A program made the translations under genes and the position numbers. DNA of 64,000 bases from an uncultured Oscillospiraceae bacterium (GTDB lineage Bacteria > Bacillota > Clostridia > Christensenellales > CAG-314): NCBI GenBank assembly GCA_964535505.1, contig CAZHUH010000002.1, forward strand, positions 52,814 to 116,813, in the 5' to 3' direction. This document shows, in pieces, positions 3,705 through 34,092 of this stretch. The notes under the pieces were generated by a model. The model saw nothing but the letters and a program-made list of their open reading frames with translations. It did no database searches and was not told the DNA's origin. How positions within the stretch are numbered: the first letter of the stretch is position 1; each line of letters opens with the position of its first letter.

Positions 3705-3877
3705 GCAGAGAATCAAGCGAACCGTCCTGTGCGGCGGCCCTTGGCAATGGCTTGGCTTTGCCCGACTGCACCATCGGTACGGTTTCGACTATGCTATCTT
3801 GCCATTGAACAAAAATCCACTTCCACAGGCGCGATGCGGTTGCTGGCTAAACACTATCAGTTGCAACCATTTTTTTG
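3705..3877 (+). ncRNA. Candidate small RNA of about 170 nt, unknown family, with its own promoter and intrinsic terminator
   Basis: Promoter: TTGCCA (3669-3674), 17-nt spacer, TATTGT (3692-3697). Nested pairings: CCTGTG/CACAGG and CAATGGC/GCCATTG. Terminator: GGTTGC (3838-3843) / GCAACC (3863-3868) followed by T7. There is no SD or protein-like ORF. Confidence 0.3.
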
Positions 3878-3920
3878 TTCAAAACCTTGATTCATTTTAT
3901 TCCTGTTTGATATACAATAT

Positions 3921-3997
3921 GGAGGCATAGCTCAGTTGGTTAGAGCGCTCGCTTCACATGCGAGAGGTCGTAGGTTCGAGTCCTACTGTCTCTACCA
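3921..3997 (+). tRNA. tRNA-Val (anticodon CAC), CCA encoded
   Basis: Cloverleaf GGAGGCA-UA-GCUC-AGUUGGUUA-GAGC-G-CUCGC-[UUCACAU]-GCGAG-AGGUC-GUAGG-UUCGAGU-CCUAC-UGUCUCU-A-CCA. Confidence 0.9.
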
Positions 3998-4026
3998 GTT
4001 TGACGGCTCGCTTTGGGGTCGCACAA

Positions 4027-4060
4027 GAAAGGAAGTGAAACAAATCACTTCCTTTTCTTA
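4027..4060 (+). terminator. Intrinsic terminator after tRNA-Val
   Basis: AGAAAGGAAGTGA / TCACTTCCTTTTCT hairpin with a T-rich tail. Confidence 0.6.
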
Positions 4061-4161
4061 TGCTCCTTTTGGCTTCACCATCAAACATATCGCATAGTCA
4101 GGACAGTTAAAAATAATGTAGCGTTCCGCTTCGCTCCACTTACCGCCGCAATGCGGACGGA

Positions 4162-4182
4162 CGAGTCCTACTGTCTCTACCA
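4162..4182 (+). repeat. Exact 21-bp copy of the 3' end of tRNA-Val (CGAGTCCTACTGTCTCTACCA; original at 3977-3997)
   Basis: Exact direct repeat seen in the sequence. The sequence upstream of the copy cannot form D, anticodon or T 5' arms, so this is not a second tRNA. Confidence 0.85.
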
Positions 4183-4187
4183 ATTCA

Positions 4188-4250
4188 AAAAGCCATTATT
4201 GTTGTGATTTAAATCAAACTTTCGCACAACATATAGTGGCTTTTTTTTGT
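4188..4250 (+). terminator. Long hairpin plus T-run immediately after the partial tRNA copy
   Basis: AAGCCATTATTGTTGTG ... CACAACATATAGTGGCTT, followed by T8. Confidence 0.45.
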
Positions 4251-4401
4251 TTTTATATGCATTTTGTACACAAATTTTATCGGATTAATTATTTTGTTAC
4301 ACTTGATAAATATTTTGCAAAACGAAAATGTCTTCTTTTGCAACGCAAGAATAGTTGTCCTTTTTATTCAAGCCGTGTCTATGCTTTTGCCGTATTTTGC
4401 A

Positions 4402-4439
4402 ACAAAAAACGGCAAGCCACATTTTTAGACTTGCCGTTG
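4402..4439 (-). terminator. Intrinsic terminator downstream of the oapA-like gene
   Basis: On the minus strand: AACGGCAAG-N13-CTTGCCGTT followed by TTTTTTG. Confidence 0.7.
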
Positions 4440-4459
4440 CGCAATAATTTTAAGTGTAA

Positions 4460-5251
4460 TTACTTTTCGCGAGAAAACACACTTAAAATACGTGCCACGT
4501 TGAACACGATAGTGTTGGCTTTGCTAATCGCTACACCTTTGCCCAAGGCTTTTAGCGAAATGGTTGCCATGGAAATTACCGCATAGATGGTAACGGAAAC
4601 CCAAAAATCGACGCCGTTGCCAAAAATAACCTTGGTTGCAATGCTTGCCGCGCACACACCGGAAACGATTCCGCAAATATCGCCGATTATATCGCAACAC
4701 ACGGAGGAAACTACATCGCTGTTTTTGGCGAGTTTTACGGCGGTTTTGGAACCTTTTACCTTTCGGGAAGCCATTGCCAAAAATGGCTGCACATCGCAAG
4801 AAGTTGCGGCGGTGCCTATCATATCGAATATTACGCCCAAAGCCAAAATTACCAAAGTCAGCACAATCGCCACCCAAAGTTGAGCGTCTTCCAAAACAAG
4901 TTCAGACCCGGCGTTTACGGCAAATGCCAGCAAAAAGGAAATTAGCACTGCTTTTAGCGGCCACAAATTGCGCTTCTTTTTCTTTTTGGCGTCGTTTTTG
5001 GCACGTGATGATGCCGAAGTTCCGCCGTTTGTTTTGATGTCGCGCGCCGAAGCGTCTTCGGCAACTTCTTGCGCGTTGCTCTTTTTCTTGCTTTTGTTTT
5101 TTGATTTTTTCGCTTCGCGTGATTCAACTGCAACAACTTGATCGTTTACCGATTGTTGTTCGCGAACGTTTTTTTCGATTTTTCCTCCGTCGTTTTCGTT
5201 TGCAACGGGAGTGCCATTTTGCGTTCCTCGTGGAACAGGGTCGTTTTTCAT
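4460..5251 (-). CDS. oapA: 4-TM membrane protein with a Lys-rich N-terminal extension of about 95 aa; candidate OLE-associated protein OapA
   Basis: 263-aa ORF with a GGGAG SD 4 nt upstream. Four hydrophobic helices are seen in the C-terminal 165 aa. It lies immediately downstream of the OLE-like noncoding region on the same strand. The family assignment rests on context only. Confidence 0.6.
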   Translation of the reverse strand: MKNDPVPRGTQNGTPVANENDGGKIEKNVREQQSVNDQVVAVESREAKKSKNKSKKKSNAQEVAEDASARDIKTNGGTSASSRAKNDAKKKKKRNLWPLKAVLISFLLAFAVNAGSELVLEDAQLWVAIVLTLVILALGVIFDMIGTAATSCDVQPFLAMASRKVKGSKTAVKLAKNSDVVSSVCCDIIGDICGIVSGVCAASIATKVIFGNGVDFWVSVTIYAVISMATISLKALGKGVAISKANTIVFNVARILSVFSREK

Positions 5252-5299
5252 AATTCTCCCAAAATAACAATATTGATGAATGTTGTTTACATCCTTTTA

Positions 5300-5335
5300 C
5301 AAAAAGGGTTTGCAAAGTTAATAATGCAAAACCCT
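5300..5335 (-). terminator. Terminator or attenuator-like hairpin between the OLE-like RNA and oapA
   Basis: On the minus strand: GGGTTTTGCA-N10-TGCAAACCC followed by TTTTTG. Confidence 0.4.
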
Positions 5336-5389
5336 CCTGTTGCAAAATATGTTCAATAAAAGATTTGCCGTAGAAATAAAATTTTACGA

Positions 5390-6060
5390 TTATTCAGCGC
5401 AACCGCAAAACTTTGCCGCAAAAGACGACAATGCGGCTTATCTTGAATATGCTTTTTAGGTGGTGGCTTGCCAGATAAACCTTACGGCATAGGTTCAGTA
5501 GGATTTCCCACGCAGGAACTTCCCGTCGCCGAAGAAGCAGTTTCCTTTTACTCCCACGCAAGCATCGTTGCCGATTGCTCAACTGAATCGCCACTTAGTC
5601 CGTACTATAATCTCTGACAAGCCTGATTTGCAGTCTAGAAGATTTCCTTTGCAACAACCAACAAGTTTTAGTTTCTTTTGCAAAATTCATTTTGTAAAGC
5701 AGTCGACATACGTTGTCGGCCAACAAGCGGCTGTCGTTCTTTACTCCCAAAATTTCACTCAAAACAAGCTACTCTGTACACAGCTTTAGTTCTTTCACCG
5801 CATAGCAGGTTTAATCTCAGAGAGTAATTGCAACGAAGTTGCATTGCAACCACCCTGTAGAGTCTCCACGAAAGATGGGGATATAACATATGCCATTACG
5901 TCTTACCCATCAATCTTAACTTCCAGCACCAGCCCCCGTTTGGGCAACGAAAGCCAGCACAAGAAACTTCATCGATATGCTCGTCGACGGTCTTTTAGGC
6001 CCGCCTTCAAAATGTCGGTTATTGACTAGAATACTGCACCACCGGTGTGTTTCCACACAA
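5390..6060 (-). ncRNA. Candidate OLE (ornate, large, extremophilic) RNA; boundaries approximate
   Basis: About 0.65 kb with no credible ORF on either strand, normal GC content and many local hairpins (for example TGCAAC-GAA-GTTGCA at 5829-5843). GGGAGUAAA occurs twice on the transcribed strand (5547-5555, 5740-5748). The placement ispA -> RNA -> 4-TM protein on one strand matches the published OLE/oapA synteny. Confidence 0.55.
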
Positions 6061-6122
6061 AACATTTATATTCTACGTTTAATGGATATTTAAATCTTTA
6101 ACAGTAGATTATTTTAATGCAG

Positions 6123-6151
6123 ATTATACCACAACGCCGCAAAAAAAGCAA
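6123..6151 (-). promoter_or_regulatory. Sigma-A promoter upstream of the OLE-like RNA
   Basis: On the minus strand: TTGCTT (6151-6146), 17-nt spacer ending in TGG, then TATAAT (6128-6123). Confidence 0.5.
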
Positions 6152-6380
6152 ATGTTTTTGGCACCTAGCCTTTTCGATTGCAAGTTTGGCGCATTTTTAA
6201 AACGTTTGTGCCGCTGCTAAAGTTGTTTTTTCTGCTTTTGACATACGGGCGGCGTGAAGCATTTTGGACTCAATGATTCGCGCATAAAATGTTCTCGAAC
6301 ACGTTTGCATCGCACCAAATATGCCTTGGATGTTTGCCCGCCAAATGCACCAAAATTATTTTTGCAAAGCACGTGTTTTA

Positions 6381-7193
6381 CTACTTATTGCGCACCAAGT
6401 TTTCCATTGCACACTTTTTGATGAAAGACAAATCGTATTGCGGCATGCTGTCGCAAAGTGCAATGGCTTTGTCTGTAAGTTTTTGCGCATACTGACGGCA
6501 TTCGCGTTCCGTCATTACGTCCAAGAAGGATTTTTCGCACTTATCGGCATCCAAAAGATCGTCTACAATTTGGTACGCAATGCCAAAGTTGGTGGCAATT
6601 TGGTCGAAAATTTCCACGTCTTCCGGCGCGGCGTGCCCACAAAGTGCACCGCAAACAATTGCCGCACGCAAAAGATCGCCCGTTTTGTGCAATGCAACTT
6701 CATTCGCATCTTCAAAAGATTTGGTTTCAGCGAACAAATCCAAGCACTGTCCGTAAAGCATACCGTTTGCGCCGGATTTTTCAAACAAAAACGCGCAAGC
6801 CTTTTGATAGTGCTTATCCGAAAGGTTGCCGCCAAGCACCACTTCCATTGCCGAGTTCAAAAGGGCATCGCCTGCCAAAATTGCGGCGGCTTCGCCAAAT
6901 TGCAAGTGGCATGTGCGACGGCCGCGGCGCAATTCGTCGTTGTCCATTGCCGGCAAATCGTCGTGAATAAGCGAATAGGTGTGAACGTATTCCAACGCGG
7001 CGGCAAGCCTATATGCGTTGTCGTTGAGTCTTTTACCCACCGCTTGCGCCGTGTTAAGCAACAAAAGCGGACGAAAACGTTTTCCGCCGGAAAAAAGGCT
7101 GTATTCCATTGCCTGTTCTACCTTATCGGGAATTTTTGAAAGGTATTTGCGCAACAATTCGTCGATAGTTTCTACTGTGATTTTAGTTTTCAT
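6381..7193 (-). CDS. ispA: Farnesyl/geranylgeranyl diphosphate synthase (polyprenyl synthetase)
   Basis: Both aspartate-rich motifs are present: LIHDDLPAMDNDELRRG and QIVDDLLD. It overlaps the xseB stop as in the conserved xseAB-ispA cluster. Confidence 0.93.
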   Translation of the reverse strand: MKTKITVETIDELLRKYLSKIPDKVEQAMEYSLFSGGKRFRPLLLLNTAQAVGKRLNDNAYRLAAALEYVHTYSLIHDDLPAMDNDELRRGRRTCHLQFGEAAAILAGDALLNSAMEVVLGGNLSDKHYQKACAFLFEKSGANGMLYGQCLDLFAETKSFEDANEVALHKTGDLLRAAIVCGALCGHAAPEDVEIFDQIATNFGIAYQIVDDLLDADKCEKSFLDVMTERECRQYAQKLTDKAIALCDSMPQYDLSFIKKCAMENLVRNK

Positions 7194-21524: not shown

Positions 21525-24292
21525 TGCGCAATCTCTTCAATTTGATAAATTTCAAAGACATCTCCAACTTTGATGTCGTTGTAGTTTTCCACCGAAATGC
21601 CGCATTCGTAGCCGGCAGCCACTTCTTTTACGTCGTCTTTGAAGCGTTTCAACGCCAAAATGTTGCCATTGTAGATGGAAATGTTGTTGCGATAAACTCG
21701 AACTTTGCCGTTTCGAACCGCTTTGCCGTTGGTAACATATCCACCCGCAACGGTGCCGACACCGGTGATTTTGAATATTTCGCGAACTTCCACCGAGCCC
21801 ACAACCGTTTCTTGAAACTTGGGCGCCAACATACCTTTCATTGCCGAAGTTACATCGTCTACGGCGTCGTAAATTACGCTGTAAAGGCGAATATCCACGC
21901 CTTCCGTTTCGGCAACGGCTTTGGCGTTAGTGTCGGCGCGCACGTTAAAGCCAATGATGATGGCGTCGGAAGCTTTTGCAAGCATAACGTCCGTTTCGTT
22001 GATGCCGCCCACGCCGCCGTGAATGGCTCTTACCTTCACTTCGTCGTTGGAAATCTTTTCCAAACTGGATTTCAGCGCTTCCAAACTGCCTTGAACGTCC
22101 GTTTTGATGATGAGATTCAACGTTTTCAGTTGACCTTCGGAAATACGTCCGAACAAGTCGTTCAAATTCATTGCCGAAGTTTGACGCGCGTTTTCCAATT
22201 TTATCTTATTCTTGCGTTCTTCTGCCGCTTTCTTAACAAGTTTTTCGTCGGCAACGTACATATAGTCGCCTGCTTGCGGCACTTCGGAAAATCCCAAAAC
22301 TTCCACGGGCATGGACGGACCTGCGCTTTTAACGTTGCGGCCCTTGTCATCGAAAATTGCACGAATTTTGCCTGTGGCTGCACCTGCAATGAGGCTGTCG
22401 CCTACGTTCAACGTGCCGTTTGCCACCAAAACTGTTGCAACGGGGCCTCTGCCCTTATCCAACTTGGCTTCCAAAATTGTGCCGGTGGCACGCTTTTGGG
22501 GGTTGGCTTTTAGGTCTTGCATCTCCGTAACAAGCAACACGCTTTCCAAAAGTTTGTCTAGCCCCATGCCTGTTTTTGCCGAAACCGGCACCATAATGAT
22601 GTCGCCGCCCCATTCTTCCGCCAAAAGGTCGTATTCGGTGAGTTGTTGTTTCACTCTGTCGGGGTCTACGTTGGCTTTATCCATTTTGTTGATGGCAACA
22701 ATTATGGAAACGCCCGCCGCTTTGGCGTGGTTGATTGCCTCGATGGTTTGAGGCATCACGCCGTCGTCCGCCGCAACGACTATTATTGCGACGTCGGTTA
22801 TTTTTGCACCTCTCGCGCGCATTGCAGTGAAAGCCGCGTGTCCCGGCGTATCTATAAAGGTTATTTGTTCACCGTTTGCCGTAACGGTGTAGGCACCGAT
22901 GTGTTGAGTTATGCCGCCGGCTTCGCCGCTTGTTACATTGGTGTGGCGAATGGCATCCAACAATGAGGTTTTGCCGTGGTCGACGTGCCCCATAACGGTA
23001 ACGATCGGAGGACGTTTTGTGTCATTTTCCAAACCGTCGTCGTTGATATCGGTGATGATTTCTTCGGCGGTTTTGTCCATTTTAAGTTCCAACGTTACTT
23101 CGTGCAAACTTGCAATATACGCCGCGTAGTCAAAATCAACCGAGTCGTTGATGGTTTTCATGATGCCTTCTTTGAAAAGTTGTGAAATAATTTCAGAAAC
23201 GGGCACGCCGATTTTTTCGCTGAGCACTTTGATGGGCACTTCTTGCGTGCTGACCACCGCATTGGTGATTTTTTGCACTGTAACCGTGCGTGCCGATTCG
23301 CTCTTTTTGGTGCGAGCGCGACGCACGATTCTGTCTTCGTCGTAGTCGGCGGAATAGTCGCGCGTAATAAGCGATTTTTTGCTTGCCGCACGCTTTTCAT
23401 CGGGATGCTCTTTGGTTTTGTTCTTATTGCCGTAGTTCTTTTGCGGTTCTTGACGAGGCACTTCAACAGGAGCAAAACCCGCACCGCGTTTTTGTTGCGT
23501 TTTTTGTCCGCTTTGTTGCGTCGGGCGAGAGTTGTTGTCGCCGTCCTTTTTGGAAAATGCACCTTGACGAGAACGTTTGTCGCCCGTTTGTTGATTTTTG
23601 CCGCCGTTGCGACCTTGTTGCGGACGAGCCGAATCGATTTTGGGCGTGGAGGCGGGACGCTGTTTCGCAGACGTATCCAAAAACTTTCTTATGCGAACGT
23701 TGCCCTTTTCATCGGTGTAGGTTTTTACCTCACGGCCGTTTTCTATTTTAGTAACAACCTGCGGTACGACAGGCTTTTCGGTAACAACCGTTTGTTGTTG
23801 TTCGGCTTTAGGCTTTTCCGTCTTGTTTTTCCCCGCATTTGGCTGTTCCGCTTTGGTCTGCTCCGCCGCTTGCGGTTTTTTTGTCTTTTGCGATTGCGCT
23901 TTTTGAGGCTCTTTCTTGGGCTTTTGCGCTTCAACTTCCGCTTGAGGAAGCAAAGTTTCTGCTTTTTCGGCAGGTTTTTCCTGTTTGGGTTCTTGAACTT
24001 CTTCCTTTGCGGGTTTTTCGTCAGTTTCGACAACTACTGGTTGTTGCTGTTGTTGTTCAACCGCTTGTTGCTGAGGCGCTGCTTCTTGAACTTGTTCCTC
24101 CGCCTTTTGCTCGGCAGACAAAACCGCCTCGAATTCCGTTTCGCGAAGACGGATAGCAGCCATCAACGCGCCTGCCTTTTGCCTAACTGCCGAAGCCTTT
24201 TGCTGCAATTCGCGCGCCGCGTTTATAACATTGATTTTGATGTTTTTTACGTTTTCAAAACCCTTGCCTGTGTTATTTGTTGTGTTTGCCAT
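21521..24292 (-). CDS. infB: Translation initiation factor IF-2
   Basis: 923 aa with a low-complexity Q/K/E/P-rich N-terminus and the GTPase motifs [17 protein letters not shown] and NKMD. Confidence 0.98.
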
Positions 24293-24596
24293 TCGTCTCC
24301 TCCAACTTCACTTCTTGATTTGCAACTTGTTGTATTGCGTTAGCCAGCGATTTGTCGCAAATTGCCAACGCTTTGCAATTTTTCTGTTTCAAATTGTTGT
24401 AATCCTCTGTAACCACCACTTCGCAATGGAAATTTTCCGAAGCTTTCAGCAAAAAATCCAAAGAATTTTGCGAAAGCGTTTTGGTTGCCAAAAGCAGATA
24501 TACTTTTTTGCGGCATTTTTTTATGCTGTCGCACCCTAAAACCGCCGAACCTTTTTTTATTGCGAAGCCGATGTAGGTTTCTATTTTACTGTTCAA
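24273..24596 (-). CDS. ylxQ: L7Ae-family RNA-binding protein (YlxQ-like)
   Basis: 107 aa, lying between ylxR and infB as in Bacillus. It has the L7Ae-like segment [12 protein letters not shown]. Confidence 0.75.
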
Positions 24597-26747: not shown

Positions 26748-28391
26748 TTACTTGGCGTTGCTTGCCAAAAACGACATGCACTTTGCAACTGTCATTGCCT
26801 TATCCTCGCAGTTGGCGGTTGGGCGGCTATCGATTTTAAGCGATTTTGCCACCTCTTCAAGTTGCGAATAGGCGGGGCGAACGTCGACGGTGCTGTTTTC
26901 AAACAAGCGTTGAAAAGCGTCCGCAGTGGACACAATTTTGTTGGAAAAGTTGTAGCCCAAAGGTGCGGCATAGTAGTTGAGCAACTCCGTAAGTTCAAAA
27001 AGATTATCGCCAACCAAAATACTTTGGAAAGTAAATTTGAACAAATCTCCGATAATTTCCGTAAGGGTGGGGCTTAGCGAAAGTTGCTTTACAGAGATGT
27101 TGGTTTCTTTCAACTGCTGTTCGGGCAAATCCATTTCCGGCAGAACGCATGTGAAAAATTTCTCTTTCATGTGTCCGTTTAGCAAGCGCACACCGCACAA
27201 GGCGAAAATTTTGTCCTTGGTGATGTTGTATCCTGTAACGTTGGCAAAAAGCACCACGCAGTCTTTGCCTTGCAATACCGACGGGCGTTCTTCAAGTTGC
27301 ATCAACGATAGTTGGCGATATTCTTCCGCCGATTGCGGGCGCACCAAAACGTAACTTTCGGGCACACCGCGTTTGAATTTGGGCTGCAAATTTATCGGCT
27401 CGATACGGCACTTGCAAATATCGTACATTTGCAGTTCCAACCGTTGCGAAAACTGGCTATAAACCACCTTGCCGCGCACAACAATTTCCAAGCCGTCGGT
27501 AAGAAATGCGAGTTTTTTCATGAGCTTATCGTTGGAAAGGCGCTGTTTTTCGCTTATTGTGTGCACTTCCGAATCGGGTTTGCCGGTGGTTTGCTTGATG
27601 GTTTCCACGTCCTCTATTTTGAAGCGCACAAACATCAAACATGGCATTGTTGCGCCGGAGCCGTCGGTTAGGTTGAATTTGCAAAGTTTCAAAATAGAGT
27701 TATTCTTCACGGCGCGCAATTCCTTTTCGGAAATTTTGCCGCAAATTACGCAACTGTCCATTGGGGTGCGAATGTCGGAAATGTACATTGGTTTTGACAC
27801 TATTTCCTTGCCTATATACTTCACCACATCCGTTACGTTAAAATACCGTTGGGGTTTTAGCATTTCTTTGTTGATGGCAAGGTGCACCAAACGTTCCTGG
27901 TTTTCGATATCCGCATTGCCCAACGTTGCAGATTTGTCTTCCACAAGAAAAAATTGCACATTGTAGCAACTGTATGCAGCAAAAAAGGCGGAAAGTTGCG
28001 AAGTAAATTCGGCAATTTCCATGTTGCGCTTTGTAAATTTGTTGACGTTGAAGGTTGCCGTTGCGTTGAAATCTTGCACCTTTGCGGAAATTTTGTCTTG
28101 CTTGATATCGGCAAACAGCGGGAAACGCTTTTTGACGTAGTCGACAACCAACGCAACAAAACTGCGTTCGTTGAACTTGTCGTTGGCAAACTGTACTTCG
28201 CAACGATAGCCTTTTGGCATGTTTTCCGAGACAACGGCACGCATTTCGCCCCGAACGCCGCCATCCAAAGTGGAAACATCGGGGTAAGAAATAACACAGT
28301 AGACGCGTTTTAGCACCTTGTCTACTCGTATGTCCCTCACGCGCAAGTTTGGCATTTGAGGGAATTTTTGTTTTAATGCGTCAACTAACAT
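26748..28391 (-). CDS. PolC N-terminal-region-like protein: N-domain, OB fold and a degenerate DnaQ-like exonuclease domain; no PHP or polymerase core
   Basis: 547 aa from the ATG at 28391 (AAGGAAG SD), or 558 aa from the TTG at 28424. It occupies the polC slot between ispG and rimP. The OB-like segment is CVICGKISEKELRAVKNNSILKLCKFNLTDGSG...VVRGKVVYSQFSQRLELQMYDI. The C-terminal 190 aa are colinear with the PolC exonuclease domain, but Exo I, II and III acidic/His residues are replaced. Confidence 0.6.
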   Translation of the reverse strand: MLVDALKQKFPQMPNLRVRDIRVDKVLKRVYCVISYPDVSTLDGGVRGEMRAVVSENMPKGYRCEVQFANDKFNERSFVALVVDYVKKRFPLFADIKQDKISAKVQDFNATATFNVNKFTKRNMEIAEFTSQLSAFFAAYSCYNVQFFLVEDKSATLGNADIENQERLVHLAINKEMLKPQRYFNVTDVVKYIGKEIVSKPMYISDIRTPMDSCVICGKISEKELRAVKNNSILKLCKFNLTDGSGATMPCLMFVRFKIEDVETIKQTTGKPDSEVHTISEKQRLSNDKLMKKLAFLTDGLEIVVRGKVVYSQFSQRLELQMYDICKCRIEPINLQPKFKRGVPESYVLVRPQSAEEYRQLSLMQLEERPSVLQGKDCVVLFANVTGYNITKDKIFALCGVRLLNGHMKEKFFTCVLPEMDLPEQQLKETNISVKQLSLSPTLTEIIGDLFKFTFQSILVGDNLFELTELLNYYAAPLGYNFSNKIVSTADAFQRLFENSTVDVRPAYSQLEEVAKSLKIDSRPTANCEDKAMTVAKCMSFLASNAK

Positions 28392-28615: not shown

Positions 28616-29653
28616 TTAGTCATTTTTCAGCAGTGAAAGAATTTCTTGTTCAAATTGCTTGACGCCTTGGTCGGCATCCACTGTTTTATACTTTTTGCCG
28701 TTTTTGAAAAACACGAATTTGCCGTTTGCGCCTGCCAAACCGATGTCGGCATCGGAACATTCGCCGGGGCCGTTAACTTCGCACCCCATAACGGCAATTT
28801 TCAACGGTTGTTTTAGGTTTTTGGTAAACTCGTAAACTTCGGCGGCAACCTTTTCCAAATCGATACTGCATCTGCCGCATTTAGGGCAAGAAACAAAGGT
28901 TACACCCTGTCTCAATTGCAGCGCGCGCAAAATTTCCAAACCTGTCAAAACTTCTTCAACAGGGCTGGCGGTGAGTGAAACACGAATGGTATCGCCTATG
29001 CCTTGCAAAAGCAAACTGCCTATACCAATGGAGTTTTTTACAATACCTTGCTCTTTCAAGCCGGCTTCGGTTACCCCCAAATGCAAAGGATAACCAAGTT
29101 TTGCGGCAAGTTGGTTGAGTTTTACCGTTTGGCGAACGTCGCTGCTTTTTACCGAAAGTACCAAATCGCAAAAGTTTTTGCTTTCGAAGTAGCGAACGTA
29201 TTCTTCCAAACTGTTGACAAGTGCCAAACACTTGTCGCCATTGGCGGCTTGCAAATGTTGCTTGTTGACTGAGCCGCCGTTTACACCCAGGCGAATGATA
29301 GTGCCGTTGGCTTTTGCCGCAGCGATAACTTCGTTTAGTTGACGCTTTTCCACATTGCCGGGGTTTAGGCGAATTTTATCCGCGCCGCAGTCTATTGCGG
29401 CAAGTGCCAAACGGTAGTCGAAGTGAATATCCGCCACCAACGGCAAATCAAAAGTTTCGCGCACTTTAGCAAACGCCTCTACCGATTGAACATTGGGCAA
29501 AGCGATGCGCACGATATCGCAACCGACAGACGCAAGTTGACGAATTTGCTCACACGTTCCCTCAAAGTTTGTTACCGGAAGGTTTGTCATGGATTGCACG
29601 GAAACGTTGCCGTCGCCGAAAATCAATCTTTTGTTTTGAACGATTTTTTTCAT
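28616..29653 (-). CDS. ispG: 4-hydroxy-3-methylbut-2-en-1-yl diphosphate synthase
   Basis: 345 aa, colinear with IspG/GcpE. The C-terminal 4Fe-4S ligand region is present (VSCPKCGRC ... GCEVNGPGE). Confidence 0.95.
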   Translation of the reverse strand: MKKIVQNKRLIFGDGNVSVQSMTNLPVTNFEGTCEQIRQLASVGCDIVRIALPNVQSVEAFAKVRETFDLPLVADIHFDYRLALAAIDCGADKIRLNPGNVEKRQLNEVIAAAKANGTIIRLGVNGGSVNKQHLQAANGDKCLALVNSLEEYVRYFESKNFCDLVLSVKSSDVRQTVKLNQLAAKLGYPLHLGVTEAGLKEQGIVKNSIGIGSLLLQGIGDTIRVSLTASPVEEVLTGLEILRALQLRQGVTFVSCPKCGRCSIDLEKVAAEVYEFTKNLKQPLKIAVMGCEVNGPGECSDADIGLAGANGKFVFFKNGKKYKTVDADQGVKQFEQEILSLLKND

Positions 29654-29690
29654 ATTTTGTATTTTGCAGCAAGTAAATTTTGTGAATTCG

Positions 29691-31010
29691 TCAGAACAGT
29701 TTCAGTAAATCTACCAAAACCACGAAGCCCAACAACAATATAAGCCCTATGCCGTTGATCCACGATTCCACCTTGCGGTTTATCGGTCTACCGGCAATCC
29801 ATTCGATTATGACAAACACCATTCGACAACCGTCCAAAGCAGGCACCGGCAACAAATTGAACACCGCCAAGTTGACGGAAATAAGCACAATAAGTGCCAA
29901 AATGCTGGGAAAACCGTAGGATACCACTTCACTGGTGATGCTTATGGTTGTAACGGGACCGCCAATGTCGTTTAGCCCAACCGCGCCTGTGAACAAACCG
30001 CCCAAAGTGCGCAACACCAACGCCGCAACTTCGCCGCAATATGGCAAAACACGTGTGAGCGCTCTGCCGAAATCGAACTTGTAGGCAAGATAGTTTATCG
30101 ACATGCCTATGCCGTTATATTCCTGTTCGACAACGGAAATATCGGGATTGGCTCCGTAAATGTCGGAAACGAGCACCTCGTAGACATATTCTTTGCTGAT
30201 ATAATCCGTATTGTCTTCATTCAATTCATTGCTGACGGAAACAGTTATCGTGCAAGTTTCCTCTTCGTAGTTTTCCAAATATTTGAACAAATCGCCCTTT
30301 TCAAACACCAAATTGCCGTTTATGCAATAAATCATATCTCCGGTTTGCAGCTCGCGTTTGCCGTCGGTTACGCTTACGTAGGTTTTGGAAAAATCCGAAA
30401 CGTTGAAAGAGGTGTAAGTTTCGCGCGTGATGCCGTCCAAAGTTACTTCTTCGCCGTTGCGCAACACCACTATTGTCATTTCGTCCGCCATATAGCGATT
30501 AAGATTGTCCAACATGAAAACCGTTTTGCCGTTTATTTTGTAGATGATGTCGCCCTTTTGCAACTGTTGGTTAAACTGCGGAGCGTAGTCGTAAACTTTG
30601 TTTACCATTGCCACCGTTTCGCCGTAGGCACCGAACAAAATCACGCAAATTAGCACCGCCGAAATGAAGTTGAAGGCTGCGCCGGAAAATAGCACGATAA
30701 GGCGCTTCCATGGTTTTTGCGCATTGAAAGCACCTTCCACCTGCGTTTCGCCGTCCTCACCTTCGAAAGCGCAATAGCCACCCAAGGGAAGCAGGCGCAA
30801 GGAAACGACTTCGCCGTTTTTCCTCTTTTTTGACAACAGTTTCGGGCCCATACCAACGGAAAACTCGTTGATTTTGAACTTCAACAATTTGCCTGCGGTG
30901 TAGTGTCCTGTTTCGTGCACCAAAACCATGAACATTAATATAATAAACGCCAACAGCACGCGGCCGATGGTGCCCATAACCGATTGAAAACTTGCCGATA
31001 AAGTTAACAT
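29691..31010 (-). CDS. rseP: RIP (site-2) zinc metalloprotease RseP/RasP
   Basis: HETGHY (HExxH) lies in the first TM region, followed by a PDZ-like central region and a C-terminal NLLPVPALDG motif. The start is uncertain (31010 or 31037). Confidence 0.92.
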   Translation of the reverse strand: MLTLSASFQSVMGTIGRVLLAFIILMFMVLVHETGHYTAGKLLKFKINEFSVGMGPKLLSKKRKNGEVVSLRLLPLGGYCAFEGEDGETQVEGAFNAQKPWKRLIVLFSGAAFNFISAVLICVILFGAYGETVAMVNKVYDYAPQFNQQLQKGDIIYKINGKTVFMLDNLNRYMADEMTIVVLRNGEEVTLDGITRETYTSFNVSDFSKTYVSVTDGKRELQTGDMIYCINGNLVFEKGDLFKYLENYEEETCTITVSVSNELNEDNTDYISKEYVYEVLVSDIYGANPDISVVEQEYNGIGMSINYLAYKFDFGRALTRVLPYCGEVAALVLRTLGGLFTGAVGLNDIGGPVTTISITSEVVSYGFPSILALIVLISVNLAVFNLLPVPALDGCRMVFVIIEWIAGRPINRKVESWINGIGLILLLGFVVLVDLLKLF

Positions 31011-31185
31011 ACTACCTCTTGTTTTGCGCCAACACATTTTGGCGCACGTTTTTGTTTGCGTTGTGCGTTAAAAAAGCACTTCAATTTTGCTATGCTTCAA
31101 ATTTGCAAAAACAAACATACCATGCTTGTGTGTGCAAAAGAAAACTCGCTTTGTCATTTAGGGCTCGCGCAGACGAAATGCCAAA

Positions 31186-32283
31186 TCAGACAGTGCGTTC
31201 TGAAATCGAATTTGTTGCGTATTCTCGTGCCAAAGCGTCGAATTTTTCTATGTTTTCCACCGTCAAAGGCAAATTTTGCACTTGCGGTGCAAAGTGCTCG
31301 ACAGTTGCAATAATCGTAGGGTAAAACCCATCGAACGGCAATTTTTCCGCCAAAAAACTCTCCACGCAAGCGTCGTTTGCGCCGTTCATAACAGTGCGGC
31401 ACAAAGGCGGATAGTGCCAAATTTCCGCTGCCAACTTTGCGCAAGGAAATTTTTCGAAATTGCATTTTTCAAAAGTGAGGGTAAGCAAATTTTGAAAATC
31501 CACATTGTTAACAATGCGGCGGCTTTCGCCTAAAAGCGCAAGCTGAATTGGCAAGCGCATATCCGGTACCGCCATTTGCGCCGACACACTGCCGCTTTGC
31601 CATTGCACCATCGAGTGCACCACGCTTTGCCTATGCACCACGATTTGGACGTTTTTTGCAGGAACGTCAAAGAGAAAATGTGCTTCAACTACTTCCAGAA
31701 CCTTGTTCATCATGGTTGCGCTGTCGATTGTAATCTTGGCGCCCATGTTCCAGTTGGGGTGTTTCAAGGCGTCGGAAGGCTTCACTTTGTGCAGTTGTTC
31801 TTGGGGCGTGTTCCAAAACGGACCGCCGCTTGCGGTAAGCAAAATTTTGTCGATATCGCTTTTGTTGTGCCCTTGCAAACATTGCCAAATGGCGCAGTGT
31901 TCGCTATCCACAGGCAAAATTTTTCCTTTGCCGACGGCATTTACCAATTCGCCGCCGCACACCAACGTTTCTTTGTTTGCAAGCGCAACGTCCTTGCCTT
32001 GCTTCAAGCAAAACAGCACCGCTTCAAGCGCAACTATTCCGCGCGTTGCCACAACTGCCACATCGCAATCTTTCACCGCTTGCACCAAGCATTGTTTGCC
32101 GCTTTGCGAAATCAGCGCAGTGTAGACCGGGGCAAATTCTTGCGCTTGCGCATTTAGCAGTTGCGCATTGGAATATGCCACAAGGGAAACTATTTTAAGT
32201 TTTTCGGGAAAAGCGCGCACCACATCCAAAGTTTGTTTGCCTATGGAACCGGTGCATCCCAAAACCGCAATCTTTTTCATCAA
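31186..32283 (-). CDS. dxr: 1-deoxy-D-xylulose 5-phosphate reductoisomerase
   Basis: The KIAVLGCTGSIG NADPH motif is present and the protein is colinear with Dxr. Confidence 0.96.
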   Translation of the reverse strand: MMKKIAVLGCTGSIGKQTLDVVRAFPEKLKIVSLVAYSNAQLLNAQAQEFAPVYTALISQSGKQCLVQAVKDCDVAVVATRGIVALEAVLFCLKQGKDVALANKETLVCGGELVNAVGKGKILPVDSEHCAIWQCLQGHNKSDIDKILLTASGGPFWNTPQEQLHKVKPSDALKHPNWNMGAKITIDSATMMNKVLEVVEAHFLFDVPAKNVQIVVHRQSVVHSMVQWQSGSVSAQMAVPDMRLPIQLALLGESRRIVNNVDFQNLLTLTFEKCNFEKFPCAKLAAEIWHYPPLCRTVMNGANDACVESFLAEKLPFDGFYPTIIATVEHFAPQVQNLPLTVENIEKFDALAREYATNSISERTV

Positions 32284-33287
32284 ATAATAAACATAAAGAC
32301 AAACGCGACGAAAACGGCGTTTACCATTATGCCGTCGAATCTATCCATTATGCCTCCGTGTTCACCCAAAATACGGCTGTAATCTTTTATGCCGCAGTAG
32401 CGTTTTACCAAACTTGCAAGCAAATCTCCAACTTGCGTCATTGCCGAACCGACAAGTCCTATTACAGCGTAGATTATTGCAATAGACGCATTTGAAAGCC
32501 GCAACCCCGGGAAAGTCAAACCGAACTGTGCGCCGAAAAGTTTAGCCCAATCGAACACGGCAAACACCACAAACGAACCGAAAAGCCCGCCGAAAAGCCC
32601 GCCGATGGCACCTTCAACCGTCTTTTTTGGGCTGATTTTTTCGCACAATTTGTGTTTTCCGCAAATGCTGCCCACAAAATAGGCAAAAACATCGGTAAAA
32701 GAGGAAACCGCAAACACAAAAGCAATGCTAATTGCGTTGTAGGGCAACAACAACGATCCGGAACGTTCGCCGAAGTACTGCCAAATATCGTATTCAACAT
32801 AATCCAACAGAGGGTTTCCTTCCAAAATGGGAAAGGTGTTCGCACATCTGTTAAGATACAACAGGGCCGACATAAACATGCCGGGGTATACCAACATAAA
32901 AGTTATGTAAATGAGACTATCCACCCTGTTTTGAGCAAGAGCCGTTACCGTTGCCGCCACAAACACCAACAAAGTCAGAAAAACGGTGCCCATAAAGCCG
33001 AACATGCTGTAAGTTAGACCCAATCCCACCGCGTAAAGCCACAACAGCCAACTGAAACAATCGGGAATACGCTCGCGGCCGATGGCACGCCGCATTTCTA
33101 TAACCGCCAGAAAAATGATGACGGAAATTATCCCCGCATTGATAGATCTGCCGCTTATATATTTAAAAACATCGGAACCTTTTCGGTATCCCGGCAGATA
33201 AATATCTATCAAAATCATGCCTATCATCAGTGCAAAAACACCGATTCCCACCAACACACGGTTGACAAGCGATTTTTTGTTTAACAT
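32280..33287 (-). CDS. cdsA: Phosphatidate cytidylyltransferase (longer N-terminus than usual)
   Basis: Polytopic membrane protein with the C-terminal CTP-transferase signature ...SLVKRYCGIKDYSRILGEHGGIMDRFD. Confidence 0.92.
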   Translation of the reverse strand: MLNKKSLVNRVLVGIGVFALMIGMILIDIYLPGYRKGSDVFKYISGRSINAGIISVIIFLAVIEMRRAIGRERIPDCFSWLLWLYAVGLGLTYSMFGFMGTVFLTLLVFVAATVTALAQNRVDSLIYITFMLVYPGMFMSALLYLNRCANTFPILEGNPLLDYVEYDIWQYFGERSGSLLLPYNAISIAFVFAVSSFTDVFAYFVGSICGKHKLCEKISPKKTVEGAIGGLFGGLFGSFVVFAVFDWAKLFGAQFGLTFPGLRLSNASIAIIYAVIGLVGSAMTQVGDLLASLVKRYCGIKDYSRILGEHGGIMDRFDGIMVNAVFVAFVFMFII

Positions 33288-33321
33288 TTATACCTCGAAT
33301 TTTATTGTCTTTTGAAAACCG

Positions 33322-33370
33322 AATGCCGCCATAGGTGCGGTTTCGCTTGCAGAAATCGGAAAGAATTTCG
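33322..33370. repeat. 49-bp perfect direct repeat, copy A (intergenic); copy B at 33421-33469 is the 3' end of uppS
   Basis: AATGCCGCCATAGGTGCGGTTTCGCTTGCAGAAATCGGAAAGAATTTCG occurs twice, 99 bp apart. The flanks show weaker similarity. Confidence 0.95.
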
Positions 33371-33417
33371 AAACATTATTTACCGAAATCGGGGAAAACA
33401 TCGTCGAACAATTTGTT

Positions 33418-34092
33418 CTAAATGCCGCCATAGGTGCGGTTTCGCTTGCAGAAATCGGAAAGAATTTCGGCATATTCATTTTCGGAAAAACCAGGCCAAA
33501 GCGTATCGGAAAAATACAACTCGGCATAGGCGCTTTGAAACAGCAAAAAGTTGGAAAGCCGCTTTTGACCGCCCGTGCGAATTACCAAATCAGGCGCGGG
33601 AATAAAAGCGTTGTACAAATTTGCAGCGATGTTTTGTTCGGAAAGTTCGCGTCCCTCCCGCACAACTTTTTGCGCCGCCTGAACGATATCCTTTCTGCCA
33701 CCGTAGTTTATGCACAAATTTACGCAAATAGCGTCGAAATTCGCCGTTTTTTGCTCCATTTCGTCAATTTTTGCGACAAGACTTTTTGGCAGGCCGTCTT
33801 TTTCGCCGGAGACAACCACGCGCACACGATTTTTGCAAAACTTTTCAAAGCGCGAAAGATATTTTTCCGCAAGGGAAAACAACGAATTCACTTCCATTTG
33901 AGGGCGTTTCCAGTTTTCCGTAGAAAACACGAATAGACTTAGAAACTTTATCCCCTTTTGCAAAGAGAAATCGATTATTCTTTCGGCAGTAGCCAAGCCT
34001 TCTTTGTGCCCTTCAAGGCGCGAAAGGCCTTTTTGCATTGCCCAACGGCCGTTGCCGTCCATTATTATCGCAACGTGAATAGGAACGTTCAT
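33418..34092 (-). CDS. uppS: Isoprenyl transferase (undecaprenyl diphosphate synthase)
   Basis: The HVAIIMDGNGRWA motif is present. The start ATG at 34092 overlaps the TGA of the upstream small ORF (ATGA). The ORF track extends to 34116. Confidence 0.95.
   Translation of the reverse strand: MNVPIHVAIIMDGNGRWAMQKGLSRLEGHKEGLATAERIIDFSLQKGIKFLSLFVFSTENWKRPQMEVNSLFSLAEKYLSRFEKFCKNRVRVVVSGEKDGLPKSLVAKIDEMEQKTANFDAICVNLCINYGGRKDIVQAAQKVVREGRELSEQNIAANLYNAFIPAPDLVIRTGGQKRLSNFLLFQSAYAELYFSDTLWPGFSENEYAEILSDFCKRNRTYGGI

Follow-up and report, generated by a model that had tools for sequence, protein, structure and literature searches.

A full-length OLE RNA gene and its oapA neighbor downstream of ispA in an uncultured gut Clostridia-type bacterium

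The locus examined here raises the question of what occupies the long gap between an ispA-like gene and a small membrane protein gene on the minus strand of a 64-kb stretch of DNA (analyzed as a whole and hereafter called the window), and whether the RNA and the protein encoded there belong together. A preliminary description had proposed an OLE-like RNA downstream of ispA, followed by the membrane protein OapA. Few non-coding RNAs of bacteria are as large and as well conserved as OLE, the biochemical function of which is still unknown. Because of the match to the Rfam OLE family (RF01071), the covariation of its base pairs, the conservation of OLE against diverged flanks, the adjacency of OapA homologs to OLE and the hallmarks of OapA itself, we consider it almost certain that the locus is a canonical ole–oapA unit.

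Locus context and the OLE RNA

The host belongs to the Bacillota and is an uncultured gut Clostridia-type spore-former: the window carries spoIIIAA, AC/AD, AE, AF and AH, and the related loci come from metagenome-assembled genomes (MAGs) of gut samples labeled Clostridia, Christensenellaceae or Ca. Fimimonas. Judging from its habitat, it is presumably anaerobic. The reported gene order asp23-nusB-folD-xseA-xseB-ispA was confirmed, with spoIIIAH ahead of it and ispA as the last gene before ole; most related loci likewise have an ispA homolog ahead of OLE. The ispA-like frame (6381..7193, minus strand) encodes a short-chain polyprenyl diphosphate synthase (PF00348, 151.8 bits; NCBIfam FPPsyn, 228 bits, below its cut-off of 275), and it and the 263-aa frame (4460..5251, minus strand) lie where they had been placed. 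The gap between them, put earlier at about 0.65 kb, measures 1,129 nt (5252..6380), of which the structured RNA takes up 615 nt. As had been stated, it holds no credible open reading frame (ORF), with none exceeding 73 aa and no protein-like signal.

In the textbook OLE locus, oapA is, we presume, followed by dxs. The absence of dxs after oapA had been listed as a departure from that arrangement; the gene is indeed lacking here, but the loci of the four nearest relatives likewise lack it, and the departure is minor. A search for DXP synthase among the scanned large ORFs of the window (PepO, TopA, ComM-like Mg-chelatase, InfB and others) found none, and since dxr and ispG are present in the window, dxs is expected elsewhere in the genome. 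The OLE partner proteins OapB (YbzG, a KOW protein) and OapC (YbxF, an L7Ae protein) were sought among part of the ORFs within the 64-kb window: no KOW or L7Ae protein was found among 20 small ORFs scanned against Pfam, and a 107-aa ORF at the ylxQ position matched nothing in Pfam or PDB and bears no L7Ae signature.

Membership of the RNA in the OLE family is demonstrated by the covariance model. The ole gene (5444..6058, minus strand; 615 nt) scores 435.1 bits (E = 1.9e-124) against RF01071, the gathering score of which is 50 bits, and the match read from 6058 to 5444 covers model positions 1–616 of 616, bearing out the proposed identity. The RNA is best described as the full-length type of OLE rather than a reduced variant. 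RNAalifold analysis of 26 sequences demonstrates a covarying structure, with compensatory double changes in 93 of 150 OLE pairs and a covariation term of -27 kcal/mol. No observation spoke against the assignment to this family. A permissive Rfam scan of 3800..6500 returned no further known RNA in the leader or spacer of the transcript.

Comparison with two related MAG loci, L082 and L085, separates the RNA sharply from its surroundings. OLE identity to the window is 98.0% and 92.9%, respectively, whereas OapA identity is lower (75% and 63%) and the upstream flanks of ole, only 55% and 46% alike (~50%), do not align. Many OLE nucleotides are highly conserved and under strong purifying selection. 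Conserved blocks across the OLE alignment (A3) include GCAGTATTCTAGTC and GGAAAxC. When aligned to the model, the OLE of the window keeps the consensus nucleotides of the P5 region, AUCGAUGAAG ... GUUAAG, and in its 3' domain a GNRA hairpin, GGCGACGG, which is either P13 or P14.1. In OLE RNA, the k-turn near P5 is the site of OapC, and the GNRA loop of P13 is the primary site of OapB.

The repeat noted previously proved to be real as a pair of sequences, but not as a duplicated motif. Copies of GGGAGTAAA lie at 5748..5740 and 5555..5547 (three in the window, where 0.23 would be expected), inside two different OLE elements; the first is kept only in the close clade, and of the second only the AAAAGGAAAC part is kept. 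Because the copies occupy different elements and are differently conserved, GGGAGUAAA was rejected as a meaningful duplicated motif.

The OLE of close relatives is expressed in gut metatranscriptomes. Logan contigs from relatives 90–99% alike cover only 5459..6043, at word depths from tens to ~1000, and place almost nothing on oapA; being assembler contigs from other strains, they have unreliable ends and do not inform the flanks. Adapter-joined contig ends at 5473 and 5504 were set aside as transcript ends, given their random-fragment origin.

Could the region instead be a remnant that no longer functions, left by a defective OLE gene or by a coding gene in decay? The small hairpin at model positions 424–435 is absent from the OLE of the window, about 20 non-canonical pairs appear in its alignment to RF01071, and defective ole genes have been reported in rare genomes (PMC11332333). 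The reported defective copies, however, occur where oapA is lost, while here oapA is present and intact, with a conserved ribosome-binding site and start. Decay is also at odds with a full-length match of 435 bits, with near-identity to relatives in which the flanks have diverged to noise, and with the covariation across the 26 sequences; a degraded coding gene, in turn, is at odds with the lack of long or protein-like frames. We regard a relic as extremely improbable.

OapA: core, family and N-terminal tail

The 263-aa product of oapA (4460..5251, minus strand) consists of a tail (residues 1–95) and a core with four transmembrane (TM) helices (residues 96–263). Its Shine-Dalgarno sequence, GGGAG (5256..5260, minus strand), stands in a context, GGAGAATTATGAAAAACG, that is kept in L081, a 98% relative of the window, and in L082 and L085; this conservation supports the ATG at 5251 as the true start and, with it, the N-terminal extension as real. 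A homology search found 797 homologs of the protein. Of 80 related homolog loci, 73 have OLE immediately before the gene and in the same orientation, the remaining seven not having been inspected individually, and the adjacency of ole and oapA is near-universal.

In the AlphaFold2 (AF2) model, the core (pLDDT 73–86) forms helices at residues 97–122, 125–151, 181–210 and 216–243. The DxxxD motif is D187-I-I-G-D191, of which D187, G190 and D191 do not vary among 73 sequences. A basic loop, S-R163-K164-V-K166-G-x-K169-...-K173-...-K176, is invariant or nearly so among the 73 homologs and, by the positive-inside rule, would lie on the cytoplasmic face; a second basic cluster, K89–R94, is juxtamembrane. 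The membrane protein had been assigned to OapA, and this assignment stands on published hallmarks together with adjacency to OLE, neither experimentally characterized OapA (H. halodurans BH2780 or the C. botulinum protein) being present in the 120 proteins listed or in the 80 retrieved loci. The published features are DxxxD, four TM helices, a basic cytoplasmic cluster and weak CNNM homology (PMC11332333; PMC12265935), and DxxxD is distinctive of OapA.

The weak CNNM likeness invites the alternative that the protein is a truncated Mg2+ transporter of the CNNM/MpfA/CorB type that adjoins OLE by chance. The Pfam CNNM family PF01595 matches weakly, and one homolog is labeled "Mg2+ and Co2+ transporter CorB" by its source. 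The four top Foldseek PDB matches, which are the best structural ones, are 7M1T_A, 7M1T_B and 7M1U_B (CorB) and 7CFG (CorC), although they are weak (best E = 8.5e-3, probability 0.92–1.0, TM-score about 0.3–0.5). This likeness was reached by fold comparison only, a PDB sequence search having returned nothing at E <= 1; OapA has previously been compared structurally with 7M1U (PMC11332333). Several observations speak against a transporter remnant. The PF01595 match, at 20.2 bits, falls below the cut-off of 28.4, and scans of Pfam and NCBIfam revealed no other domain, with no CBS, no CorC_HlyC and no NCBIfam family, so that the protein lacks the features by which CNNM transporters such as MpfA, CorB and CorC are recognized. 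It carries an invariant DxxxD, which CNNM domains lack, and its model has four TM helices against three in the CorB monomer (PMC11332333). With homologs next to OLE in 73 of the 80 loci, a chance neighbor is highly improbable, and the protein is read here as OapA.

The tail, in which 96 residues precede the WPLK motif, is hydrophilic and predicted to be disordered over its ~95 aa (AF2 pLDDT 40–57). It had been described as a Lys-rich extension that could contact RNA. The extension is real, but RNA contact by the tail as a whole did not hold up: among the 73 homologs, tail length runs from 18 to 152 aa (median 50, the tail of the window being among the longer ones), and net charge without the last eight residues has a median of -1 and a range of -10 to +18. 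A whole tail acting as a basic RNA-binding arm was rejected on account of this wide variation. Only the MKNxxPVPR start and the KKKKKRN next to TM1 are conserved, which suggests that what has been kept is a short peptide at the N-terminus and a polybasic patch next to the membrane. Such a tail, disordered and variable but for two short motifs, could guide the design of constructs for structural work on OapA and OLE.

Promoter, leader and spacer

A sigma-A-type promoter of ole (6123..6151, minus strand) was read from the sequence and is conserved in relatives. It comprises a -35 element TTGCTT (6151..6146), a 17-nt spacer and a -10 element TATAAT (6128..6123) with a TG extension at 6131..6130; the extended -10, TGgTATAAT (6131..6123), thus contains a perfect -10, whereas the -35 is poor (3/6 matches). 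Its position and motifs (TTTGCa...TGnTAtAAT) are kept in L081, L082 and L085 despite flanks that do not align, and almost every related locus has a comparable promoter ahead of OLE. In these gut lineages, ole seems as a rule to have a dedicated promoter. In H. halodurans, too, transcription of OLE was shown to begin at a promoter of its own (Wallace et al. 2012, PMC3413148). The promoter motif is there as described, but is not the unusual feature for which it had been taken.

Transcription of ole is predicted to start near 6116, which would give a 5' leader (6059..6116, minus strand) from the start site to the start of the OLE model, without an Rfam match. In alignment, an insertion of ~58 nt in this leader is common only to the window and L081. 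The distance from the end of the -10 to the GTGGTGCAG anchor is 80 nt here against 23–47 nt in most close relatives; within the clade it varies between 17 and 85 nt, and in a more distant clade it is ~10 nt. Searched for as a repeat or mobile element, the insertions in leader and spacer matched other parts of the window only over short stretches and at chance level.

The spacer between ole and oapA is 192 nt long, the longest in a set in which 16 close relatives have 17–86 nt, and it folds better than shuffled sequence (z = -4.2). Just 3' of OLE, a hairpin (5406..5437, minus strand) pairs GCCGCA (5437..5432) with TGCGGC (5420..5415) and is followed by AAAGUUUUG; L082 retains this stem, there with a smaller loop and followed by a T-run, and the element may be a weak terminator-like or 3'-end signal. 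The terminator-like hairpin described earlier as separating the RNA from oapA (5300..5335, minus strand) is real. It has the form AGGGUUUUGCA...UUGCAAACCCU followed by UUUUG, and the hairpin itself (5335..5305, then TTTTG in the DNA) has a folding energy of -10.7 kcal/mol. Its sequence occurs only in the window and L081, while the more distant L082 and L085 have other hairpin-plus-T-run elements; it may act as an attenuator of transcription from ole into oapA. Most relatives have a T-run immediately behind the 3' strand of P1, which the window lacks. The 3'-end or terminator-like signals after OLE vary by lineage: mostly a T-run after P1, but separate hairpins here. The unit is closed by a strong intrinsic terminator (4403..4438, minus strand), an 11-bp G+C-rich stem followed by UUUUUUG (4438..4403; -22.8 kcal/mol, z = -3.2), downstream of which lies a tRNA-Val gene (3921..3997) convergent to oapA.

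A consensus promoter and terminator scanner, whose counts for the region did not exceed those of shuffles, listed neither the ole promoter, because its -35 matches at only 3/6 positions, nor the 5335..5305 hairpin, because its 10-nt loop and short T-run fail the thresholds. Both features are therefore supported by comparison with relatives and not by the scan. The earlier statement that three features set this locus apart from the textbook one is only partly right: the departures are minor, with the hairpin and the long spacer being genuine.

The spacer bears on transcript architecture, and on that alone, leaving the identity of the parts aside. Two hairpins, each followed by a U-run, in an unusually long and well-folding spacer would fit a reading in which termination at 5437..5406 and 5335..5305 is efficient and the two genes are transcribed separately, oapA from an unrecognized promoter of its own; the metatranscriptome contigs of relatives, deep on OLE and nearly empty on oapA, point the same way. 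However, the scanner found no sigma-70-type promoter on the minus strand from 5300 to 5252, both spacer hairpins fail standard terminator criteria, and most relatives have spacers without room for both a terminator and a promoter. The low coverage of oapA may, moreover, only reflect protein-coding divergence among the relatives. Separate units are thus unlikely, though the likeliest of the alternatives weighed here.

Under the preferred reading of a single ole–oapA unit, the promoter at 6151..6123 would drive synthesis of the ~615-nt OLE RNA (6058..5444), and some transcripts would pass the two spacer hairpin/U-run elements into oapA (5251..4460) and stop at 4438..4403. Partial termination in the spacer may then set a high ratio of OLE to oapA. 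The four-TM, CNNM-like OapA would bind OLE RNA and hold it at the cell membrane, and the resulting ribonucleoprotein (RNP) may help the cell to cope with alcohols, cold, excess Mg2+ and poor carbon sources. Binding, membrane localization and stress phenotypes are carried over to this host by analogy with H. halodurans and C. botulinum; in H. halodurans, OLE is a membrane-localized RNP whose deletion causes stress phenotypes (PMC3413148, PMC12265935).

A more specific proposal is that OapA of this lineage gained an N-terminal module, made up of MKNxxPVPR, a disordered linker of variable length and KKKKKRN, along with hairpins that uncouple the dosage of RNA and protein. We consider this improbable, more so than separate units. 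If it were true, the module could serve to bring in a partner or to hold on to OLE RNA or anionic lipids, unlike in the OapA proteins studied so far, and the hairpin/U-run elements of the spacer could in addition uncouple ole and oapA dosage in the sub-lineage of the window.

Comparison with known systems

The closest characterized counterpart is the OLE RNP of H. halodurans C-125 (Halalkalibacterium/Bacillus). It likewise has an RNA of ~600 nt from the same Rfam family, with oapA immediately following ole in the same orientation, after nusB-folD-xseA-xseB-ispA, and a dedicated proximal ole promoter (PMC3413148). Its OapA likewise has four TM helices, DxxxD and a basic cytoplasmic cluster, the two proteins being likened by published features. 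H. halodurans is an alkaliphilic Bacillus, whereas the host of the window is an uncultured gut Clostridia-type spore-former; the window differs further in its hairpin-bearing 192-nt spacer, in the disordered OapA tail of ~95 aa, in having no dxs after oapA, and in that no OapB or OapC genes were seen within it.

Much closer are the loci of gut Christensenellales-like MAGs (among them L001–L017, L081, L082 and L085, with L015 being Ca. Fimimonas merdipullorum). They share the order ispA–ole–oapA, the same promoter type (TTTGCA, about 18 nt, TGnTAtAAT) and the OapA motifs MKNxxPVPR and KKKKKRN, and the OLE of the nearest relatives is 93–99.8% identical to that of the window. Relative to them, the window, together with L081, has a leader 58 nt longer, and its spacer, holding the 5335..5305 hairpin, is the longest.

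Among proteins, the TM domains of MpfA, CorB and CorC are the best structural match to the OapA core (7M1T, 7M1U, 7CFG) and are accompanied by the weak Pfam CNNM likeness, whereas OapA of the window has no CBS pair or CorC_HlyC, has DxxxD and has four TM helices rather than three. An overlapping function of OapA and MpfA/CorB/CorC has been proposed (PMC11332333). The literature further predicts that mpfA is missing or reduced in genomes with ole. In the reading preferred here, OapA is probably itself a transporter of divalent cations or a regulator of one.

Variant 1 (TANB77) and variant 2 (RF39) OLE RNAs (Fernando and Breaker 2024) also come from uncultured gut Bacillota known only as MAGs; in contrast to them, the RNA of the window spans the full model (615 nt) and keeps the GNRA hairpin of the 3' domain. 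The locus is thus already known in kind, an ordinary full-length OLE with its OapA that the standard Rfam model suffices to detect, and OLE genes have been catalogued by the thousand in Bacillota MAGs (2,822 in GTDB; PMC11332333). Given how little is understood of what OLE does biochemically, each well-annotated OLE locus has some comparative value.

Identity and conservation of the OLE RNA

When the entire window was searched against Rfam 15, positions 6058..5444 of the minus strand were identified as an OLE RNA (RF01071), with a score of 435.1 bits (gathering score 50; E = 1.9e-124). The match spans model positions 1-616 without truncation and is the only strong non-tRNA match in the window, so that the covariance model bears out the OLE RNA proposed in the preliminary description. 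A permissive Rfam scan of the leader and the OLE-oapA spacer revealed no further RNA family. Most coordinates and features of that description were likewise accurate, including the ispA-like polyprenyl synthase ORF (7193..6381, minus strand; Pfam and NCBIfam) and the translated 263-aa ORF of oapA (5251..4460, minus strand). The intervening gap, described as about 0.65 kb of non-coding DNA, in fact measures 1,129 nt; it holds no credible ORF, the longest being at most 73 aa. The upstream order spoIIIAH, asp23, nusB, folD, xseA, xseB and ispA was corroborated gene by gene by Pfam or NCBIfam.

A structural check independent of the Rfam model used a MAFFT alignment of the window's OLE with those of 25 related loci, for which RNAalifold predicted 150 pairs; 93 of these are preserved through changes on both sides among the 26 sequences. 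Between the window and the related locus L082, OLE is 98.0% identical, OapA 75% identical and the upstream flank 55% alike, and the corresponding values for locus L085 are 92.9%, 63% and 46%. As judged from these alignments, OLE is under purifying selection in the lineage of the window. It visibly departs from the model at a single point, model positions 424-435, where a small hairpin has been lost. At the corresponding window positions 5623-5640 (minus strand), the short linker AAAUCA replaces the consensus 4-bp hairpin after CUAGACUG; the window shares this linker with its close clade, while several other lineages in A3, our OLE alignment of the window and its relatives, retain the insert. 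The 3' domain retains a GNRA hairpin (GGCGACGG), which could be P13 or P14.1. The repeat GGGAGTAAA, reported earlier as occurring twice in this region, does have two copies within the RNA (three in the window versus 0.23 expected), but they fall in unrelated OLE elements, each conserved only in parts.

OapA and its N-terminal tail

The 263-aa product matched no NCBIfam family, and its sole Pfam match, to CNNM, was sub-threshold (20.2 bits, below the 28.4 cut-off). Homologues are nonetheless numerous, with 797 found at E <= 1e-3, and the closest protein in a 5.8-billion-protein collection, from a Logan assembly, is 98% identical. Among 73 aligned OapA homologues, invariant or nearly invariant residues comprise D187, G190 and D191, corresponding to the DxxxD motif that distinguishes OapA from CNNM domains (PMC11332333), and the basic loop R163, K164, K166, K169, K173 and K176. 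An AlphaFold2 model built from this alignment contains four long core helices (97-122, 125-151, 181-210 and 216-243; pLDDT 73-86). In the PDB, the model is matched best, though weakly (best E = 8.5e-3), by CNNM transporters: the top four matches are to MtCorB (7M1T, 7M1U) and CorC (7CFG), which reproduces the published comparison of OapA with 7M1U (PMC11332333). When one genome per GTDB species was searched with the protein alignment, 80 loci were recovered, in 73 of which nhmmer with the window's OLE placed an OLE RNA directly upstream of the homologue on the same strand. This adjacency is the strongest evidence for OapA identity; together with the DxxxD motif, basic loop, four helices and CNNM-like fold, it upholds the assignment.

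The Lys-rich N-terminal extension, previously suggested to contact RNA, is real, because a GGGAG ribosome-binding site and an MKN start, both conserved in four relatives, support the start codon at 5251. AlphaFold2 predicts it to be disordered (pLDDT 40-57). Conservation does not support this role for the tail as a whole: among the 73 homologues, the segment before WPLK varies from 18 to 152 aa (median 50), net charge without the last eight residues ranges from -10 to +18 (median -1), and conservation is limited to the extreme N-terminal MKNxxPVPR (51/73) and the juxtamembrane KKKKKRN. The view of the entire tail as a conserved basic RNA-binding arm was therefore rejected. More distant OapA clades carry different N-termini, either long with an MQTHxD start or very short. 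The KKKKKRN patch is consistent with the positive-inside rule and might in addition contact RNA or lipid head groups, and the MKNxxPVPR peptide could serve as a short docking motif.

Transcription signals and neighboring features

A promoter-like site on the minus strand comprises TTGCTT (-35, 6151..6146), a 17-nt spacer and TATAAT (-10, 6128..6123) with a TG extension; a consensus scanner omits it because the -35 agrees at only 3/6 positions. The site thus exists, but a dedicated promoter is not the departure from the textbook locus that it had been taken for. In H. halodurans, OLE is co-transcribed with upstream genes and is also strongly transcribed from a proximal promoter of its own (Wallace et al. 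2012, PMC3413148), and relatives of the window have promoters of their own. The close clade carries TTTGCA, ~18 nt and TGnTAtAAT, mostly 23-47 nt (overall 17 to 85) upstream of the GTGGTGCAG anchor, and a more distant clade carries a perfect TTGACA, 16-17 nt and TATAAT ~10 nt upstream of it. The position of the motif is kept in L081 (a 98% relative), L082 and L085 despite unalignable surrounding DNA. Between the -10 and the RNA, the window and L081 alone carry a 58-nt insertion.

The OLE-oapA spacer is 192 nt in the window; in 16 close relatives it measures 17-86 nt, and most of these relatives have no terminator-like hairpin there. Just 3' of OLE on the minus strand, a GCCGCA...UGCGGC hairpin precedes AAAGUUUUG, its stem common to the window and L082. 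The terminator-like hairpin already described is present at 5335..5305 (minus strand, -10.7 kcal/mol), followed by UUUUG and common to the window and L081 only. In many relatives (L001, L003, L006, L011, L014, L015, L017, L018 and L023), a T-run of 5-8 directly follows the P1 3' strand (CACCACC-TTTTTTT; A3 columns 693-712); the window instead has CCACCACCTAAAAAG, with separate hairpins further downstream. The relatives' T-run looks like a termination signal formed with the closing helix or the last hairpins of OLE itself, and hairpins and T-runs may be alternative ways to form the OLE 3' end or limit read-through into oapA. Since a promoter scan showed no minus-strand promoter between the 5335..5305 hairpin and oapA, leaky termination between ole and oapA is the likelier arrangement.

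The unit closes at a strong intrinsic terminator (4438..4403, minus strand, -22.8 kcal/mol), beyond which lies a convergent tRNA-Val. As first described, no dxs follows oapA; it is also missing there in the nearest relatives, with HTH and PepO genes in its place in L082-L084, as in the window, and argR-recN in L085. No dxs was found among the large ORFs scanned in the 64-kb window. A second isoprenoid/lipid cluster, uppS-cdsA-dxr-rseP-ispG, lies at 28616-34092 (minus strand), ~22 kb from ispA-ole-oapA; given dxr and ispG, the MEP pathway exists and dxs is expected elsewhere in the genome.

Other features were observed in the window. An exact copy of the final 21 nt of tRNA-Val(cac) (3921-3997, plus strand), cgagtcctactgtctctacca, forms a direct repeat at 4162-4182, 165 nt downstream; this att-like repeat may have been left by an element that integrated into the tRNA 3' end or was excised from it. 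There are 20 copies of the palindrome TTGCGCAA versus 8.5 +/- 2.9 in dinucleotide-preserving shuffles, and 119 of TTGCAA versus ~18 expected from base composition alone; sequence bias, a motif used in uptake or recognition, or the lack of a restriction system could account for this. Between ylxR (DUF448) and infB lies a 107-aa ORF (24273-24596, minus strand) with no match in Pfam or PDB sequence searches; in Bacillus, this interval holds YlxQ, an L7Ae-family k-turn binder and paralogue of OapC/YbxF. Two large minus-strand ORFs, 26748-28391 (547 aa) and 61423-63843 (806 aa), match no Pfam family at E <= 1e-5.

Expression, host and comparison with known OLE systems

Near-identical OLE sequence occurs in public metatranscriptomes, where contigs from four runs, derived from other strains and with ends that are not transcript ends, span only 5459..6043 at a word depth of ~10 to ~1000. 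ispA and the spacer are uncovered and oapA is covered by one divergent low-depth contig, the flanks of other strains being too divergent to map. This pattern fits an abundant, stable OLE RNA in relatives.

The nearest relatives comprise MAGs bearing the label Clostridia or Christensenellaceae, as well as Ca. Fimimonas merdipullorum, whose OLE scores highest and whose IspA is 74% identical. The spoIIIA operon, OLE locus and nearest relatives point to an uncultured gut-associated spore-forming member of the Clostridia. NCBI taxonomy places Candidatus Fimimonas in Myxococcaceae, and several gut MAGs with OapA carry the labels 'Corallococcus sp.', 'Bacteroides sp.' or 'Muribaculaceae'; in the window, the homologous locus sits among Bacillota-typical spoIIIA sporulation genes, which suggests that such labels are wrong.

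By analogy with characterized systems, OLE RNA would bind OapA cooperatively and be held at the membrane, and the ribonucleoprotein would be required when cells face stress from alcohol, cold, Mg2+ or the carbon source; OapA itself, a relative of MpfA/CorB, is a putative transporter of divalent cations; cryo-EM suggests an OLE RNA dimer, perhaps even membrane-spanning (PMC12265935, PMC11332333, PMC3413148). The locus shows the parts that the published model needs, namely promoter, intact RNA and intact OapA with its signature residues, to be present and, by comparison with relatives, under selection. The original finding is correct and concerns an RNA family and a protein partner that are both known, in their usual genomic setting; new leads are confined to the OapA tail motifs specific to this lineage and to the variation among 3'-end signals after OLE. 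With 615 nt matching the full-length model end to end, the window's OLE is best described as the full-length type and not as a reduced variant of the kind found in the TANB77 and RF39 gut clades (PMC11332333).
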